IMG/VR virus record: IMGVR_UViG_3300013121_000033
Span: 64,001-128,000 of that record
Strand: one strand, 5' to 3'
Source of the DNA: a virus
Taxonomy: Duplodnaviria; Caudoviricetes
DNA: 64,000 nt
Below the pieces are notes generated by a model. It ran no database searches, was not told the origin of the DNA, and worked only from the letters and a program-made list of their open reading frames with translations. The translations under genes were made by a program, and so were the position numbers. Positions 17,336 to 24,965 of the stretch are shown piece after piece; positions within the stretch are counted from its first letter, which is position 1, and every line of letters begins with the position of its first letter.

Positions 17336-17893
17336 GTGGGTTGGAGTATCGGGTTCGATCAGCGGTGGCGCCGCGACGTCGGGTACGGGGTCCCGGCGAC
17401 GTGTGACTATCCGGGGTGCGAACGGTCGATCGACCGTGGCCTCGCGTTCGTGTGTGGCGGCCGCCCGTACGGCGGCGCGTTCGGGTGCGGCTTGTTCTTC
17501 TGCTCGGACCATCAGTTCGGCGTCGAGTTCCCCCTCGGTGACCTCACCCCGAGCGAGGTCGAACCCGACGGCCTGGTAAGCGTCGACGACGACGGCAACC
17601 CGGTCATCTATGTCGGGCAGGTGTGTGAACGGTGCGCCGACTTCCTTCAAGCTGGCGGCGACCTCGAACCGTTCACCCCGTCACTGGACACCGTCGAGTG
17701 GATGGCGTTCAAGCTGCTCCACCCGTCGTGGCAAGAGTGGCGCGACGGGCACGCCGACGAGGTGTCAGCGATGCGCCAGTCGATCATCGACCGGCTGCCG
17801 TTGATGCCTCCCGACGCGATCTCCCGGATCGTCGCCGAGTTCGAGTTCGACGACATCAACGCCGACGACACCCGGCGTCTCTTGCGCCTCTAG
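17336..17893 (+). CDS. Cys-rich hypothetical phage protein
   Basis: AGGAGG SD; MGWSIG...RDVGYGVPATCD.PGC...IDRGL..VCG...GCGLFFC..H. Confidence 0.7.
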   Translation: MGWSIGFDQRWRRDVGYGVPATCDYPGCERSIDRGLAFVCGGRPYGGAFGCGLFFCSDHQFGVEFPLGDLTPSEVEPDGLVSVDDDGNPVIYVGQVCERCADFLQAGGDLEPFTPSLDTVEWMAFKLLHPSWQEWRDGHADEVSAMRQSIIDRLPLMPPDAISRIVAEFEFDDINADDTRRLLRL

Positions 17894-20800
17894 AACAGGG
17901 ACGGCTGGGCGTCGTCCACTGGCCGCCGTCGTTCCTGCACTCCTGCGTACTGGGGGCCTCCGCGGTAGCCGCGTTCGATCCGCTGGCGGATCAACGGCAG
18001 GTAGTCGCCGGTCTTTTCGACTGCGACCACGTTGAACCCTTCGAGGATCGCAGCCTCGATCGTGGTGCCGGACCCGGCGAACGGCTCAAGGATCACGCCC
18101 GGTCGGGATTCAAGGGGCGTCCCGCAGACACGACACCGCCGCAGTGCGGACAGATGACCGGCTTCCGCGGCTTCGGCAGCCTGTCGTGCTCGCGCTTCGG
18201 GAGCACTTCCAGATTCTCCGGCCGGTTGTCCGCCTTGTCGCCGTTCTTGTGGTGCACGACCTCGTCGGCGGTCAGCATCCGACCCAAGTGCTCCGCCATG
18301 ACCATCCGATGCACCAACACCATCCCGGTCTTCGACGCCATCGGGTGCTCCGGTCGATACACGGCCAGGTAGCCCCGTGGCGTCACGGTTGGCGTGGTCT
18401 TGCGTCGGGAGAGACCCGCCGCCTTTGCGGCACACGCCCGCGAGCAGAACCGTGTCGTCTTCGCTCGCGGCGAGAATGTCGTCCCGCACTTCTCGCACGC
18501 TCGCTCGGGGATTGGCGTGCGGCCCCGCATCGCCTCCGCCGCGCACGTCGGTGAGCAGAACTTCTGACGCGCCCTCCTCGTCGTCGTTCCGCACACGGGA
18601 CACGGGGAGCGGGGAATCACCCGGCTCGCCGCCCGGCACGCGTCGGAGCAATACGTCGCCTCCGCCCGCTTGACTGTCGTCCCGCACAGGGGGCACGTCG
18701 TCAAGGGGTGCTTCCGTGCTCGCCCGGCGGCCTTGTTCCTGCACCGCACCGAACAGACGATCTGTTCCGGTCTGTTGGGTGTGAACGGTTCTTGGCATTC
18801 TCTGCACAGCTTCACGATCAGGCAGCGTAGAACACGCGGGGCAGTGCCATGTGGACGGCGGGGTCACCAACCTGCACAGCCAGCGCATCAACGCGAGCGG
18901 TTTCACCGTCGGATGCCGGGTCCCGTCCTCCCCGACCGGTCGTTCCGACGACGGCGCCTTCGCGACGTACATGAACGCCGGATCGGGTAGCTCCACCTCG
19001 AACGTCGGGAAGAACCGCGACGCCCCGCCCGTGTCGCTGTACTCCGCTCCCGTTCTTCGCATACCGAACCCTTTGCCGCCGTCACGAGTCCATGACGACT
19101 CCTCGGTCCCGCGCCGCTCACTCCCAGGTCGACCGGACACGTCCCCGGACTGTTCGTCGAGCGCGGCGACCGGACACCCCGGCTCGCACTCCCACTCCGG
19201 CACATGCCGCCAACGGTTCCATTCGCTGGCTCCCGACTCAGCGCTCGTCTTGCCACCTTCGTAGCCGACCTTGCCTGGGGTCTTGACGGTGCGGGTGCCG
19301 ACCTGTCGGCACCCCTCGGAATGGGAGAACGTGAAGTAGTCGGACCACCCGGGCGGGATCAACTCAGCCGGGATCGCAACTCCGCGTTCTCCGCCCGGAG
19401 CCGTTCCACCTCGATCAGCAACATCGCGTACTGTCGCTCGATCTCCCGATGACCCACCGAATGCGCCGCCCTCGGGACCACAGTCAGGTTCTCCGGGCGG
19501 TTGTCCGCCTTCTCCCCATTCTCGTGGTGCACCACCTCGTTCGTCGTCAGCGGCCGTCCCAGCTTCGCTGCTGCTACCGCCCGGTGCTCCGCCACGTACC
19601 GCTGTGTCGGCTTGACCATCTGCCTGACGAGCGCTTGCGTCGCCTCGGGGAGCAGGTCGATCATCACGAACCGGTAGCCCCCGCTGTTCGTGTAGGTCCC
19701 GCCCTTCCACTGCGACGATCGTTCCTTCACGTACCGGCCCGTCGCTGCCGCCGACATCTTCGCCCGCGCCTCCGTGGTGTGTGCCTTCCCCAGCCGGTTC
19801 CGGTTCCTTGCGTTCGCTGCCTGTCGGCATCGAGCCGAGCAGTACCGGCGACGACCGTTTCGCACCCACCCCGGAGTCACCTCGAACGGCTCGTTGCACT
19901 GACGACAGTTGATCGTCACCCACTCCGTCTTGCGGACCCCCTTCCGCGAAGCCCCCGTGCACGCCATCGAGCAAAACTTCCGTCTCGCCAGGTCCGACGG
20001 CATCCCCCAAATCGGCTCGCCGCAGTGGGCGCAAGGCTTCGAGATTGCCGTAGTAGGCAACGATCGCATCTTCGACTTCGGCGGGGAGGTCATCGCGGAG
20101 AGCGTAGTAGTCATACCGCAGATGCGACATCACGAAGTTGGCGGGCCACCGGCCCTCGGTGGTCGTGCCGACCGCTTTCGATCCGCCGTCGAACCCCGAC
20201 CCGGCGTTCTGCCTGCCCGCGTACACGGCCCCGTTAGCCGATTCCTTCGGGTCGATCTCACGGGCTGGTCGCCCACCGGCCTCCGTCGGAGCGACCCGTG
20301 TGCCGTCGATGTTGAGTGCGCCGGTGCCGTGTTCGAGCACGTTCGCGGCGAGGGTGCCTGACAGCGGCTTGCGGGCGAGAAGGATGGGCTCATGAGCGGG
20401 CTTCAACGCCGTCCCCCATGACGACCACCGCTCGGCAAGGTCCGAGGTAGGGACCCGCTCGACGCGCTCGCCAACCCATCGTTCACCGTCGCCCTGGTAG
20501 CCAAAATCACCACGGGTGATGGCGACAACCTCGTCGCCCCGCTCCATCGCTTCATCGAACGGCGTGACGTCGAGCCCCATCGCCACCTTGATCCTCGGCC
20601 ACAGCCCCGGCTCGGGCAGGCTGATCCCGTCCTCCCAGTTCCGCACGTTCCCGTCCGACCGACCATCGAAGATCGCCCGCTCAAACTCGGCACGCGATAA
20701 CCCCAGTTCCTCGCGACGCGCCCGCATGAACACGACCGCCTCCCGCGCCGCTAGTGCACCACCCGCACGCTTCGCGATCGCCTTCCCAACATTCATGGAC

Positions 20801-22156
20801 TTCGGGAAGCCTGAGTTGCCGGTGATGAACACCTTGCCGTTGCGGCGAGCAACAAACGCGCCCGAGGGTACGCCGATGCACCACACCTCACCCGTGTAGC
20901 TCTCCCACATCGCAGCGTCCAGGTGCCTGTGCTGTAGCTCAGTCGTGGCCGTCTGGCGGGCGTACACAGCGCCACCCGAGCGACCGGTGGCCGGGTCTCG
21001 CATCCCGACCTTCCCGGCCCGCCCGGTGAGGGCTAGCAAGGTCTGGAACCACACGAGGTCGTCCTCGTGCTTCTGGAAGAACTGCCATGCCCCGAGCGCC
21101 CCTCGCTTCCGTTGCTGGTGGCCGTCGCCGAGTAGCGCCGCTTCGAGCAACGCCTCCTTCTCCGCTGCCGTCATCCGCCACAGCAGTTCGTACGTGGGCC
21201 GCTTGCCGGGGAGGTCCGCCCGCACGCGGTTCGCTAGGTCGCCGGAGAAGAACCACGTCGTTTCGACGTACTCACGGTCGCGGTAGGTGCGGGTCCGGTC
21301 GTATCGCTTGTGGGTGCCGAGACGATCCATGAGAGCAGCAATCTGCGCCACCTTGTCAGAGTTGACACTCGACTGGTAAATCCGCACGCCGGTGCCAGAC
21401 AGATCGAACCCGCCTTCGGTCCATACCCAGCCGAGCAGCGCTGCGTAGTCGGTACCGCCGATGCCGGGGCCGTCGTGTAGCCCCGCGACTGGCAACCGGA
21501 GGCGGCGGGCCGGGCGCAGGTCGGCAGCTTCAGCGACGGTCCACACGTTGTCGTACCACTCGCGGCGAACCCCGTTGGTCATCCGCCGTTGGGAGCGCTG
21601 GTGCCAGACACGGTGGTTCGGGGTGAGCATCTGATCGGTGTCGGCATTGCGGAGCACGGTCATGGGACCGTCCCACGGTGCCCGGTAGGTGCGATCGACT
21701 GCGGCGAGAGTTACCGCTCCCGTCGCTGGGTCCCACTGTGCGACGAGGTCGCCTTCCACAAGGTCGATGCCAGAACGCCAACCCGTCGGGGTCAGCACCT
21801 CGACATCGTCGGTGAGGCACCCGTAGACCCAGTGGATCGAGTCTCTGATCTCGAACCCGGCGTCCTCAACCCCCGAAGCCAACCGGTGATAGCAGCGGGT
21901 CGCGCCGAACGCGACCAGGTGGCCGCCCGGTTTCAGCACACGGAAGCATTCCGCAGCCCACTCGCGGCACCACTCCTCGAACCGGCGCGGCGACTCGAAC
22001 GCATCCCAACTCGAACCCATGAAGCCGCCGCCCGGGAAGGCATAAGGCGGGTCCGTCACGAACTGCGTCGATCGAGCAGTCAGGGAGGGTGGGGAGGATG
22101 TCCTCGACGCGGCCGTGGTGGATCGCGACGCGGTCGTCGGTGTACCAGATGGTCAC
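17890..22156 (-). CDS. N4/N6 DNA methyltransferase carrying an intein, an XRE-HTH and two overprinted HNH inserts; +1 nt frameshift near 22060
   Basis: TDPPY, RVLKPGG, GFPKS, WGTALKPAHEPI, GRWPAN, HPTVKP, EPFAGSGTT. The N-terminal strand (..IHHGRVEDILPTLPDCSIDAV) from GTG 22156 is in a different frame from DPPY. Confidence 0.85.
18093..18815 (-). CDS. HNH homing endonuclease overprinted (+1 frame) inside the methyltransferase
   Basis: Four CxxC...CSxxC zinc repeats, then GY..VY.PEHP...VLVHRMVMAEHLGRML...EVVHHKNGDKADNRPENL; TACGCT 8 nt upstream of GTG. Confidence 0.9.
   Translation of the reverse strand: MKLCRECQEPFTPNRPEQIVCSVRCRNKAAGRARKHPLTTCPLCGTTVKRAEATYCSDACRAASRVIPRSPCPVCGTTTRRARQKFCSPTCAAEAMRGRTPIPERACEKCGTTFSPRAKTTRFCSRACAAKAAGLSRRKTTPTVTPRGYLAVYRPEHPMASKTGMVLVHRMVMAEHLGRMLTADEVVHHKNGDKADNRPENLEVLPKREHDRLPKPRKPVICPHCGGVVSAGRPLNPDRA
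19359..20093 (-). CDS. Second HNH homing endonuclease overprinted (+1 frame) inside the methyltransferase
   Basis: Two zinc repeats, NUMOD3-like GKAHTTEARAKMS, WKGG, YVAEHR...LGRPL...EVVHHENGEKADNRPENL; TACGCT 7 nt upstream of ATG 20093. Confidence 0.9.
   Translation of the reverse strand: MTSPPKSKMRSLPTTAISKPCAHCGEPIWGMPSDLARRKFCSMACTGASRKGVRKTEWVTINCRQCNEPFEVTPGWVRNGRRRYCSARCRQAANARNRNRLGKAHTTEARAKMSAAATGRYVKERSSQWKGGTYTNSGGYRFVMIDLLPEATQALVRQMVKPTQRYVAEHRAVAAAKLGRPLTTNEVVHHENGEKADNRPENLTVVPRAAHSVGHREIERQYAMLLIEVERLRAENAELRSRLS
20815..21819 (-). mobile_element. Intein (335 aa) with LAGLIDADG-type endonuclease in methyltransferase
   Basis: WVYG|CLTDDVEVLTPTGW ... LLGWVWTEG ... LLEAALLGDG ... 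RRNGKVFITGN|SGFPKS; removal restores WVYGSGFPKS. Confidence 0.9.
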
Positions 22157-22181
22157 AGGTGGGGGAGCGTAGGCGAAGGGG

Positions 22182-22601
22182 TTACGCGGTGATGTGGTTG
22201 AGGGCGGCGGTGGCGGTCTGGCCGAGGAGTTCGTAGACGGGGTCGGGGTAGTCGGCGGCGTGGCGGTCGTGGTAGTCGGCGAGGGCGTCGATGAACTTGT
22301 TGGGTTGGCGGGTGCGGGCGGTGATCGCGACGGCTTCGGTGACGAACACGAGGTCGGCGAGGTCGGTGATCTCGTGTTCGCTGGTGGCGCCGTCCAGGGC
22401 TGCGGCGGCCCGGTGGAGGATCGCGGTTTCGAGGAGTTCGTGGAGGCTCGTGAAGTGGACGTAGACCGCTCCGGCGGTGAACCCGGCGGTGCGGGCGATG
22501 TCCTGGACGCGTGTCCGGTAGCCCTTCTCTGCGAACAGGTCCGCTGTTGCGGTGATGAGGCGTTCACGGGTGGAGAGTTCGATGTCGATGACGTTGCTCA
22601 T
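22182..22601 (-). CDS. TetR-family HTH regulator
   Basis: RERLITATADLFAEKGY..RVQDIARTAGFTAGAVYVHF. Confidence 0.85.
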   Translation of the reverse strand: MSNVIDIELSTRERLITATADLFAEKGYRTRVQDIARTAGFTAGAVYVHFTSLHELLETAILHRAAAALDGATSEHEITDLADLVFVTEAVAITARTRQPNKFIDALADYHDRHAADYPDPVYELLGQTATAALNHITA

Positions 22602-22649
22602 GGTGAACATTCTTGTTCGGATGGGGGTGGTGGGTCAACGGGGCTGCCG

Positions 22650-22988
22650 TCAGCCCGCACCCCGCTCGTACTCGGTCATGGCAGGTCGCGGATGACCAGC
22701 GGCGACGACGTTCAAGTTCGCCGAATCGGTACGGGGGACGCCCTCGACGCGGCCACGGTGCACCGCCCACCCGTCCGGGTCGATCCCGGCGCCGACATGA
22801 ACCGCCCAGTCCCGGGGCCGTGGTTCCTGCGACGCCCGCCGCGATCTCGGCGTCAACGCTGCGTACCGGTAGTTCCCGACCGTGTCCGTCCCGGTCCGGT
22901 CATTCCAGATGACCAGCAGCGCCGTCACCCCACCCCACGCCGACCGCGGGTTCCCACCCGGGTGCAGTTCAACCTCCACGACGATCAC
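22650..22988 (-). CDS. Hypothetical protein
   Basis: GTGA overlap with the upstream methyltransferase. Confidence 0.55.
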   Translation of the reverse strand: MIVVEVELHPGGNPRSAWGGVTALLVIWNDRTGTDTVGNYRYAALTPRSRRASQEPRPRDWAVHVGAGIDPDGWAVHRGRVEGVPRTDSANLNVVAAGHPRPAMTEYERGAG

Positions 22989-23671
22989 AGCAGCGTCCCA
23001 GGTTCGTTGGTCCACCACACTTCGCTGTAAGAACGATGGCCCCCGTCGTTCATTGCGAACTGTCCGTTCCACGGCATCCAATCGGCTCCCTTCTGCTCGC
23101 ACACGATGACTTGCCCGCGTCGGGTCATCGACCATGACGCAAGGGCCTGGAAGTTGATGTTCGTATTGTCGTAGCGGTAGCGACCTCCCCGAGTCCGGTC
23201 CGGGCGTCCGGCTTGGTATTGATAAGGCGGGTCGATAAACCAGGTAGCTTCGATGTCGGGAGCGTCGGCGTAGTCGCCATGACGTACGTCGAAGTGGCGG
23301 CACTCGTCCACGACAGCGGCGATGCGTTGCACCATTGGCGTGAACCGCTGCGCCATCCGTTCCGTGACTTGGAACTCGGACGGAGTGTCGCGAGTTGTTC
23401 GGCCGGAAGCAAACGCTACAAGCAGGTCGTCGCAAGACGCTCCAACCGTGGGAGGTTTCATTGCTCGAATTGCGTGGGCAGGGGTAGCAAGCAGGCGATG
23501 CCACAGTTCTACGACTCGTTCGTCGCGTTCTACCAGGATCACTGTCGGTGAGCGACGGTGAAGCACCGCGTACGCGGCGGACCCGGCAAAGGGTTCCACG
23601 ACTGCCGCACAGCGCGGGGCGGGATAGCGGCGAGCAGCTAGAAACTTGGAGCCGTAATACTTGAACATCAC
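22985..23671 (-). CDS. Dam/D12-like N6-adenine DNA methyltransferase
   Basis: FKYYGSK, EPFAGSAAY, FIDPPY; lower GC than neighbours. Confidence 0.85.
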   Translation of the reverse strand: MMFKYYGSKFLAARRYPAPRCAAVVEPFAGSAAYAVLHRRSPTVILVERDERVVELWHRLLATPAHAIRAMKPPTVGASCDDLLVAFASGRTTRDTPSEFQVTERMAQRFTPMVQRIAAVVDECRHFDVRHGDYADAPDIEATWFIDPPYQYQAGRPDRTRGGRYRYDNTNINFQALASWSMTRRGQVIVCEQKGADWMPWNGQFAMNDGGHRSYSEVWWTNEPGTLL

Positions 23672-24516
23672 AACATCGCCGTCTGTTCAGGGGGCGGTTC
23701 CTGAGCAGCGAACAACGACACGGTCGTGTTGTCGAGCCGGGCCGCGGCCATCTCCGCGTACCGTTCGGACTTCTCGATCCCCACGGCCCGCACACCCGCC
23801 GCTTTCGCTGCTACGAGCGTGGTGCCCGATCCGGCGAACGGGTCGAGCACGGCAGACGGAGCGGTCGTTTCGATCGCACGCGCCGGTAGACCGACAGGGA
23901 ACGGAGCCGGGTGCGGGTTGCCCCTTTCCTGCGGCACCGACCAGACGTCGCCGACGCCGGACGCGCCTTTCGACTTGAGCCGCCACGATTCTTCCGCGAC
24001 GACGATGATCACCTCGTAGGTCGGGACGTAGTGAGTCGGCGCGAAGTTGATCCCTCCCGCCCGCGCCCAGATGATCTCCTGACGGACCGGGAGTGCATCG
24101 GGGATGAGGCATCGCGGGTGCCAGAGAGTGCGTTGCGGGCGCGGCTTGTGGTTGTAGAAGATCGCACCGTTGGCGGTGAGGCAGCCCCACATCGCTGTGA
24201 CACAGGCGCGCTGCCACTCCTCGTACTCCCCCATCGGCATAGCGTCGTCGTGGTCGTCGTAGCCGTGAGCGAGTCCGTCAGCGTGATCGAGCCGCTTCCA
24301 CTTATGGTGTCCGCCTGACCCTTTCACCCCACCCCACTTCCCCATCTTCATGTCGGGGTACTTTCGGGTGTCGGCGAACCCGCCTCCCGTGCTTGTCCCG
24401 AGGTTGTACGGCGGGGAGGTGAACACGAGGTCGAACCGCTCGTCGAGTTGCGGCATGACTTCGAGGCAGTCGCCGACGTAGATCGTGACGTTGTCGGCGT
24501 TGTAGTAGGGGGTCAC
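23668..24516 (-). CDS. N4/N6 DNA methyltransferase
   Basis: GDCLEVM, FTSPPYN, HPAPFP, DPFAGSGTT. Confidence 0.9.
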   Translation of the reverse strand: MTPYYNADNVTIYVGDCLEVMPQLDERFDLVFTSPPYNLGTSTGGGFADTRKYPDMKMGKWGGVKGSGGHHKWKRLDHADGLAHGYDDHDDAMPMGEYEEWQRACVTAMWGCLTANGAIFYNHKPRPQRTLWHPRCLIPDALPVRQEIIWARAGGINFAPTHYVPTYEVIIVVAEESWRLKSKGASGVGDVWSVPQERGNPHPAPFPVGLPARAIETTAPSAVLDPFAGSGTTLVAAKAAGVRAVGIEKSERYAEMAAARLDNTTVSLFAAQEPPPEQTAML

Positions 24517-24965
24517 GACGCCTCGGTGGGGTGGGCGGTGCCGACCGGTTGGCCGTAGCGGTTCAGCCGGTCGTTGACGTACCGGCGGAACTCTTCGAGG
24601 ACCGGGAGCATCCGTTCTTGGAGATGCGGGGGTGCGATCTCGTAGGCGTGTTCGCAACGGGCCAGGTCGCCTGCATCGTGCGGGCAGTTCCAGTCGCACT
24701 CGTCGCCGCGCCACCACCACGCCCCTTCGGTTTCGGTCCAACCTGGGGAGCGGGGCCGGTCGAGGACCCCGACCGCGTGACAGACGAGCGCATCCGACGA
24801 CACACCCCGGTTGGTGGTGGCGAGCCAGGCGTGGATGAAGTCCCGTTCGGCGCGGAACAGGTCGGCGTCGGCCCCGCGGGGAGCCCGGTCGAGGGTGCGG
24901 GCGATCGTGGTGAGACGCCCGGCGAGGAGCGCTGACGATTCTTTGGTGAGCGTGGAGAAAGCCAT
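24513..24965 (-). CDS. Hypothetical protein
   Basis: Coupled overlaps on both sides. Confidence 0.55.
   Translation of the reverse strand: MAFSTLTKESSALLAGRLTTIARTLDRAPRGADADLFRAERDFIHAWLATTNRGVSSDALVCHAVGVLDRPRSPGWTETEGAWWWRGDECDWNCPHDAGDLARCEHAYEIAPPHLQERMLPVLEEFRRYVNDRLNRYGQPVGTAHPTEAS

Follow-up and report, generated by a model that had tools for sequence, protein, structure and literature searches.

How does a phage DNA methyltransferase gene accommodate two complete nuclease genes that show neither intein nor intron signatures? The question is raised by a gene on the minus strand of a 64,000-nt stretch of DNA from a virus of the Caudoviricetes (Duplodnaviria), hereafter called the window, which corresponds to positions 64,001 to 128,000 of the IMG/VR record IMGVR_UViG_3300013121_000033 (a single-contig virus record of 225,159 bp with a guanine-plus-cytosine (GC) content of ~67%). 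An earlier note, made from the letters of the window alone, had proposed a new homing strategy for this gene, in which endonucleases are expressed from internal promoters and the host frame is kept open so that the target gene survives without splicing. The mechanism itself is now backed by comparative evidence, namely, stop-codon purging, conserved -10 boxes and conserved host-frame flanks. It is not new, as it has already been published as the ShiLan domain, a hidden out-of-frame HNH gene in the gp65 methylase of Mycobacterium phage ShiLan (Gosselin 2023, PMC9957025; Arsenault, Gosselin and Gogarten 2025, PMC11855218), and as the Pacc40 insert (PMC11855218). Survival of the target gene is not shown for this phage, the methylase of which is frameshifted in codon 33. 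We regard it as quite probable that the gene holds an intein together with two ShiLan-type read-through homing elements, each with a hidden HNH gene. All window features given below lie on the minus strand.

Two nuclease genes within one methyltransferase frame

The main methyltransferase frame runs from VTDPPY to the stop codon (17890..22059) and comprises 1389 codons without a stop. It matches the N6/N4 DNA methylase family PF01555 in a Pfam profile search (E 2.3e-18). The motifs are arranged in the β-class order, with DPPY (motif IV) followed by FxGxG (motif I), and the predicted model of a homologue (L013) matches CcrM (6pbd) and RsrI. By these comparisons, the host gene is a β-class N6/N4 DNA methyltransferase of the ShiLan/Dorothy actinophage family. 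The earlier note had counted about 1390 stop-free codons containing all methyltransferase motifs; the open frame was recovered in this length, but the statement on the motifs does not hold, as the N-terminal 32 codons of the enzyme lie in another frame. The 1389-codon protein aligns with the methylases of the Mycobacterium phages HufflyPuff, BlueCrab and ShiLan, and this alignment defines three interruptions: an intein and two further inserts, A and B. All three homologues lack both inserts, which supplies the insert-less comparison that the earlier note had suggested.

Insert A (19321..20121) has 801 nt or 267 codons and lies between GRWPANFVMSH and SEGCRQVG, with SH duplicated at both of its ends. 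The site is uninterrupted in a related locus, L024. Read in the +1 frame, the insert contains the gene HNH1 (19359..20093), which encodes zinc ribbons, a NUMOD3-like stretch and an HNH_3 domain (PF13392, E 8.7e-10). Its conserved start is the ATG at 20093; a further ATG at 20114, upstream and also in frame, is not the conserved start. Insert B (18100..18855) has 756 nt or 252 codons and is situated between LVTPP and GVILEPFAGSG, just before motif I. Here, the +1 frame encodes HNH2 (18093..18815), which begins with GTG and combines four CxxC...CxxxC zinc modules with HNH_3 (PF13392, E 2.7e-14). The gene ends in a TGA that overlaps the host codons G-V-I.

In the host frame, the interiors of both inserts are of low complexity and the +1 frame of each yields a complete nuclease, as the earlier note had stated. 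HNH1 and HNH2 both keep the motif HH..N..DNRPENL..H intact, and the identity between the two proteins is only 31%. A search of the 225-kb genome detected no further copies of either gene.

Open host frame, internal boxes and insert ends

In the same-strand relation found here, host codon position 1 coincides with HNH codon position 3 (+1 frame). Since this position is rich in G+C (83-84% in HNH1 and HNH2), stop codons are intrinsically rare in the host frame. Among the genes of this genome, 13% of 245-codon windows are stop-free in the same frame relation. Shuffling of the codon order gave 3.9 expected host-frame stops for HNH1 and 2.9 for HNH2 compared to none observed (P(none) 0.013 and 0.034, respectively). 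Taken alone, the window is suggestive of stop purging.

On sequence comparison, it is the relatives and not the window alone that settle the open frame as more than chance. A search with the host protein led to P0008 (L008) and P0011 (L009), which carry homologous insert A elements with an open host frame. Searches blind to the host frame, namely, HNH protein searches and a DNA-pattern scan of metagenomes, retrieved relatives of HNH1 and of HNH2 located at the same two methylase sites. In all ~18 loci in which methylase sequence borders the nuclease at either end (L010/11, L012, L013, L014, L015, L016, L017, L024, L039, L046, L047, L052/54, the antisense L075, L006, L094/95 and L096), the flanks were in register, no host-frame stop was present and no broken frame was found. 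The earlier note had named frequent host-frame stops in homologous inserts as the observation that would count against its idea. Shuffles led to an expectation of 2-12.5 stops across the relatives, with ~10 in L017 (50% GC) and ~12 in L046 (46% GC). In all same-strand examples with a GC content of at least 46%, host position 1 equals HNH position 3 and no host-frame stop occurs. Nucleotide searches of phage and plasmid collections revealed no close relative of the locus, and scans of viral contigs with both HNH proteins resulted in only four loci, of which only L006 was informative.

The HNH frame is 54-63% identical to that of relatives, versus 37-45% for the interior in the host frame, and the interior varies most at HNH position 3. 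The interior is therefore apparently selected for the nuclease plus the avoidance of host-frame stops. In three loci of low GC content (L047, L052 and L054; 29-39%), the open host frame has the other offset relative to the HNH frame, and this suggests that the frame relation follows whichever offset gives the fewest stops under local codon usage. In the annotation of L010/L011 (3101-5371) and L012 (3191-6367), HNH1 homologues appear as free-standing genes ahead of a methylase. They are really located inside a longer open methylase frame with permuted motif order, right after GRWPAN, and the gene callers had truncated the host gene in these loci.

Both nuclease genes are preceded by a TACGCT box resembling a -10 element, at the spacing of 7-8 nt given in the earlier note: 7 nt before ATG 20093 in insert A (20101..20106) and 8 nt before GTG 18815 in insert B (18824..18829). 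The hexamer TACGCT occurs at 12 sites on both strands of the 225-kb genome, three of them in the methylase gene. The more general pattern TANNNT is strongly depleted with 281 sites on both strands, compared to roughly 2000 which we estimate from the base composition. A start codon opening at least 50 codons follows 6-8 nt downstream of 25% of the TANNNT sites and of 5.8% of random positions, an association that fits a leaderless layout in this phage. The commonest start-associated box is TAGGGT, with a long open reading frame (ORF) starting after 19 of 28 sites. A TANNNT box with differing inner bases recurs among relatives, 6-8 nt ahead of the start. Members of the insert A family have TACGCT, TACGCT, TATTCT and TACACT, which precede the conserved start at a constant spacing of 7 nt; those of the insert B family have TATGCT and TAGACT at a spacing of 6 nt and TACTGT at 8 nt. 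A scan for an E. coli-type -35/-10 pair found none of the TANNNT boxes, but its consensus is unsuited to leaderless promoters of actinobacteria.

The ends of the inserts are conserved in the host frame. Insert A begins with an N-terminal flank (20044..20121; LRYDYYALRDDLPAEVEDAIVAYYG) and finishes with a C-terminal flank (19321..19389; ERGVAIPAELIPPGWSDYFTFSH), and both are conserved in relatives. The N-terminal flank follows the pattern h-x-L-(R/K)-x-x-(L/V)-P-x-E-V...I..YYG and the C-terminal flank (R/K)(R/T)L.V....VP.GW..YF, in each case across elements from 50% to 70% GC. Variation in the C-terminal flank peaks at host position 3, as expected for a sequence that codes in the host frame. 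Insert B has a different kind of end. The host-frame motifs CPAC (18832..18843) at its start and CRVC (18124..18135) at its end have counterparts in relatives, and a CxxC is found at both ends in five out of five members. In the window, the pair reads HCPAC/RCRVC; relatives have CCDC/CASC, CVDC/CADC and CVDC/CPAC. Judging from these sequences, the two CxxC motifs of a pair could together provide four cysteines for a zinc site.

AlphaFold2 predictions, considered as summaries of secondary structure and of the predicted local distance difference test (pLDDT), are in line with this division into ends and interiors. For the L013 homologue, which has insert A only, pLDDT values were >90 in the core, 30-38 in the interior and 71-91 in the flanks; the flanks comprise a strand (265-271), a helix (277-289) and two further strands (507-509 and 521-528). 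In the window protein, the flanks of both inserts are predicted to be ordered and the interiors disordered. Its insert A flanks reached 73-92 (N-terminal) and 80-88 (C-terminal), and the two proteins combined gave 71-92 for flanks and 29-40 for interiors.

The methylases of ShiLan (L001, 1193-4466) and BlueCrab (L002, 1276-3943) are split genes, with gp65 and gp67, respectively, as the body and motif I in a separate small gene. The body ends in KLRLRADLTPEQVDHVVARLREAG, which resembles the N-terminal flank of insert A and may, on this resemblance, be the remnant of a decayed element.

Proposed read-through, its alternatives and the rest of the gene

The inserts bear no recognisable feature of a spliced element. 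Rfam gave no match in the window or in seven related loci, and no group I or group II core was recognisable by covariance model. At either end of either insert, 40 nt or less lie outside the HNH ORF, which is too little for a ribozyme core of any known kind. A conserved nucleophile is missing from the junctions, and within the inserts neither a HINT match nor a Pfam intein match was found. The Rfam, Pfam and junction results agree with the earlier note, which had seen neither intein termini nor group I or II intron structure. Translational bypassing was considered as well and rejected for inserts of ~750-800 nt; all bypassed gaps known to us are far shorter.

A read-through, splicing-free reading of inserts A and B is well supported by computation, and it can be put into the following scheme. 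Three selfish elements would have colonised the methylase gene, two of them being hidden-HNH elements from two different families. Each hidden element is an insertion with a length that is a multiple of three and carries a complete zinc-finger and HNH_3 gene in the +1 frame. The nuclease is probably made from a leaderless mRNA, transcribed from a TANNNT -10 box that belongs to the element and precedes the start codon by 6-8 nt. Purging of host-frame stops from the interior would allow the methylase ribosome to read through, yielding a disordered loop of ~200 residues, the ends of which would be held together by the short, folded host-frame end pieces. These would consist of a strand-helix plus strands in insert A and of the possibly zinc-binding CxxC...CxxC pair in insert B. 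Presumably, the nuclease cuts insert-free alleles at the DNA encoding GRWPAN...H|S..C in the case of A and TPP|GVLDPF in the case of B, and recombinational repair would then insert a copy of the element. The anatomy, the depletion of stops, the conserved boxes and flanks and the predicted order and disorder are shown by the analysis; we infer that transcription starts from the internal boxes, that no splicing occurs, that the read-through enzyme is active and that homing takes place.

The 5′ end of the gene bears on this scheme. The N-terminal 32 codons (22061..22156, from GTG 22156 to SIDAV) were aligned to homologues and encode VTIWYTDDRVAIHHGRVEDILPTLPDCSIDAV, which is out of frame with VTDPPY onward. 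One extra base at ~22062, between GTT and GTG and just ahead of DPPY (22050-22075), causes a 1-nt frameshift in codon 33. The gene end at 22156 given in the earlier note is accordingly not in register with the 1389-codon frame, and no intact frame leads from the N-terminal strand through motif I, owing to the break between SIDAV and VTDPPY. Programmed frameshifting was rejected at this position, where no slippery sequence is present. The extra base may be an error of the assembly or a recent mutation that inactivates the gene, and we lean towards a real mutation. Given this frameshift, the methylase may be inactive in this phage, as represented by this assembly. If the frameshift is real, the methylase is probably inactive, and the 1389-codon frame would be open only because the lesion is recent. 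Moreover, the conserved GD motif of the methylase reads GR in the window protein when aligned to homologues.

Several points weigh against read-through. A TANNNT box was detectable in 12 of 20 elements and not in all (11 were counted by script, and that of insert A was seen directly in the sequence). As ~13% of comparable frames are open by chance, the window alone is weak evidence. The two elements from L008 and L009 are subject to ascertainment bias because the host-protein route requires an open frame, and the additional searches were therefore conducted with the nucleases alone. Finally, the out-of-frame N-terminus and the GR in place of GD indicate that the host gene may be non-functional in this phage. 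The same frameshift and GR, together with the share of windows open by chance, would suit a dead gene, that is, a pseudogene methylase colonised by free-standing HNH genes, with a frame open merely because codons rich in G+C at the third position seldom make stops. However, both inserts are multiples of three and in register, relatives at 46-58% GC with 5-12 stops expected by shuffles are open too, none of the ~18 loci is broken, and the host-frame flanks are not only conserved but also predicted to be folded. A dead gene kept open by chance is consequently considered highly improbable. We give just as little credit to a split enzyme, made as reassembling pieces when ribosomes that end each HNH gene re-initiate at an overlapping host-frame start. 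The HNH stops do overlap a host-frame TTG or GTG (TTGA ends HNH1 and GTGA ends HNH2), and the ShiLan and BlueCrab methylases are truly split. Such an overlap is nevertheless expected by chance, because three of the four bases before a +1-frame TGA give a start codon, and re-initiation accounts neither for the stop-free host frame upstream nor for the clasp-like flanks conserved at both ends.

If the inserts were spliced out of the RNA in an unrecognised way, by themselves or with the help of the host, the read-through protein would never be the functional product. Such removal would be in keeping with the frequent occurrence of HNH genes in group I introns, and the duplicated SH...SH at the ends of insert A resembles the intron-edge similarity discussed in PMC11855218. 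It is at odds with the lack of Rfam matches in the window and the seven related loci and with the missing space for a ribozyme, and splicing would make stop purging and conserved host-frame flanks unnecessary; its chance appears smaller still. The least probable of these alternatives is that the HNH proteins are produced as fusions by +1 ribosomal frameshifting from the methylase frame instead of from internal promoters. It would explain why the same-strand relation is always +1 in relatives with at least 46% GC. Yet the conserved start is preceded at 6-8 nt by a TANNNT box that is retained despite changes in its inner bases, the insert junctions show no slippery motif, and the antisense examples L008 and L075 cannot use frameshifting at all. 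Read-through of the two inserts thus stays the preferred explanation.

The third interruption is the intein (20815..21819), which is in frame and extends from Cys81 to Asn415, followed by Ser416; the junction residues, an N-terminal Cys and a C-terminal Asn then Ser, are present. In the alignment, its position is identical to that of the intein in ShiLan gp65 and BlueCrab gp67, to which its sequence is clearly homologous. The earlier note had called it a LAGLIDADG-type intein. Its extent, junctions and homology were corroborated, and direct matches were weak (E 0.003 to an intein in the PDB and E 0.088 to LAGLIDADG_3). It would be an ordinary intein, taken out by protein splicing. An XRE-like helix-turn-helix (HTH) had been noted as well; an HTH-like variable region is located at 20557..20730, with a weak match below the Pfam cut-off (HTH_31, E 0.004). 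A further TACGCT box is found at 22166..22171, 9 nt before the methyltransferase GTG 22156. The upstream neighbours (22182-24741) comprise a TetR-family gene (22182-22610), a probable Dam-like methylase with EPFAGS and DPPY motifs and no Pfam match (22985-23671) and a second PF01555 methylase (23668-24741), so that three consecutive methylase genes are present when the gene under study is counted.

Wider occurrence and comparison with known systems

Related arrangements were observed outside the two insertion sites. HNH genes lie out of frame inside inteins, in the usual place of the endonuclease domain, in L009 (4584-5417), L025 (2312-2998) and L046 (2309-3178), and the intein and host frame is open although shuffles expect 2-12 stops. 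Two nested nucleases are antisense: L008 (2911-3570, minus strand) has a zinc-finger and DUF559/Vsr-like ORF after DPPYEL in an open methylase frame, and in L075 (2145-2648) an HNH gene is opposite an open methylase frame. Whether read-through homing elements form a broad, organised class and not a curiosity of a few mycobacteriophages, with the window inserts as type examples of two families, appears evenly balanced to us. Such a class would take in contigs from 29% to 70% GC, either strand of the host gene, several methylase sites and the inside of inteins. It would also include purpose-built host-frame clasps (strand-helix or four-cysteine zinc) and a leaderless promoter embedded in the clasp codons.

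Two questions remained after the 2025 paper (PMC11855218): by what route the hidden nucleases come to be expressed, and in what way the host enzyme copes with the insert. For both, the comparative data lead to concrete, testable proposals. Leaderless transcripts with defined 5′ ends would be expected from a box placed 6-8 nt ahead of the start, and the conserved end modules would keep a disordered loop closed at its base. Statistical support for stop purging, which we did not find reported in PMC9957025 or PMC11855218, comes from the host-frame-blind survey and its lack of broken frames. For annotation, caution is advisable, since gene callers give either the long methylase or the nested nuclease, never both.

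The closest known system is the ShiLan domain, for which PMC9957025 and PMC11855218 report an open host frame, a hidden HNH gene, absent splicing signatures and proposed leaderless translation. It shares with the window gene the methylase family, the intein site, a host frame kept open by the insertion, a complete zinc-finger and HNH gene in another frame and the lack of intein or intron signatures; leaderless expression is proposed for both. It differs in its site, WGTALKP|AFEP, compared to sites after GRWPAN..SH and before GVLDPFAGSG in the window. The HNH lineages differ too (tblastn alignments with the ShiLan insert cover part of the protein at 31-39% identity), the window gene holds two such elements plus an intein, and the -10 boxes and host-frame end modules of its elements are supported by conservation across relatives. 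Given the other HNH lineages and the two other sites, the window inserts share the ShiLan design and are not the same element. They are new examples of this published design, at sites that we did not find reported in the two papers.

The hidden HNH/AP2-like insert of Pacc40 gp60 (PMC11855218) is similar in having an out-of-frame nuclease-like ORF in an open methylase frame, and its gene also has an intein. Both its methylase family and its nuclease family are different, and the resemblance considered here is one of design. Inteins with homing endonuclease domains, of which the window gene appears to contain a true one, are likewise selfish elements in conserved motifs of host proteins and are translated in frame. 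Unlike them, inserts A and B have no conserved junction nucleophile or HINT fold, encode the nuclease in another frame and apparently stay in the mature protein. HNH nucleases are also carried by group I introns (I-HmuI), and free-standing homing endonucleases split phage genes (mobE in nrd genes). Both resemble the window inserts in a nuclease that is tied to a conserved target gene and in a patchy distribution, but inserts A and B lack a recognisable ribozyme, and their host gene would be read through and neither spliced nor split.

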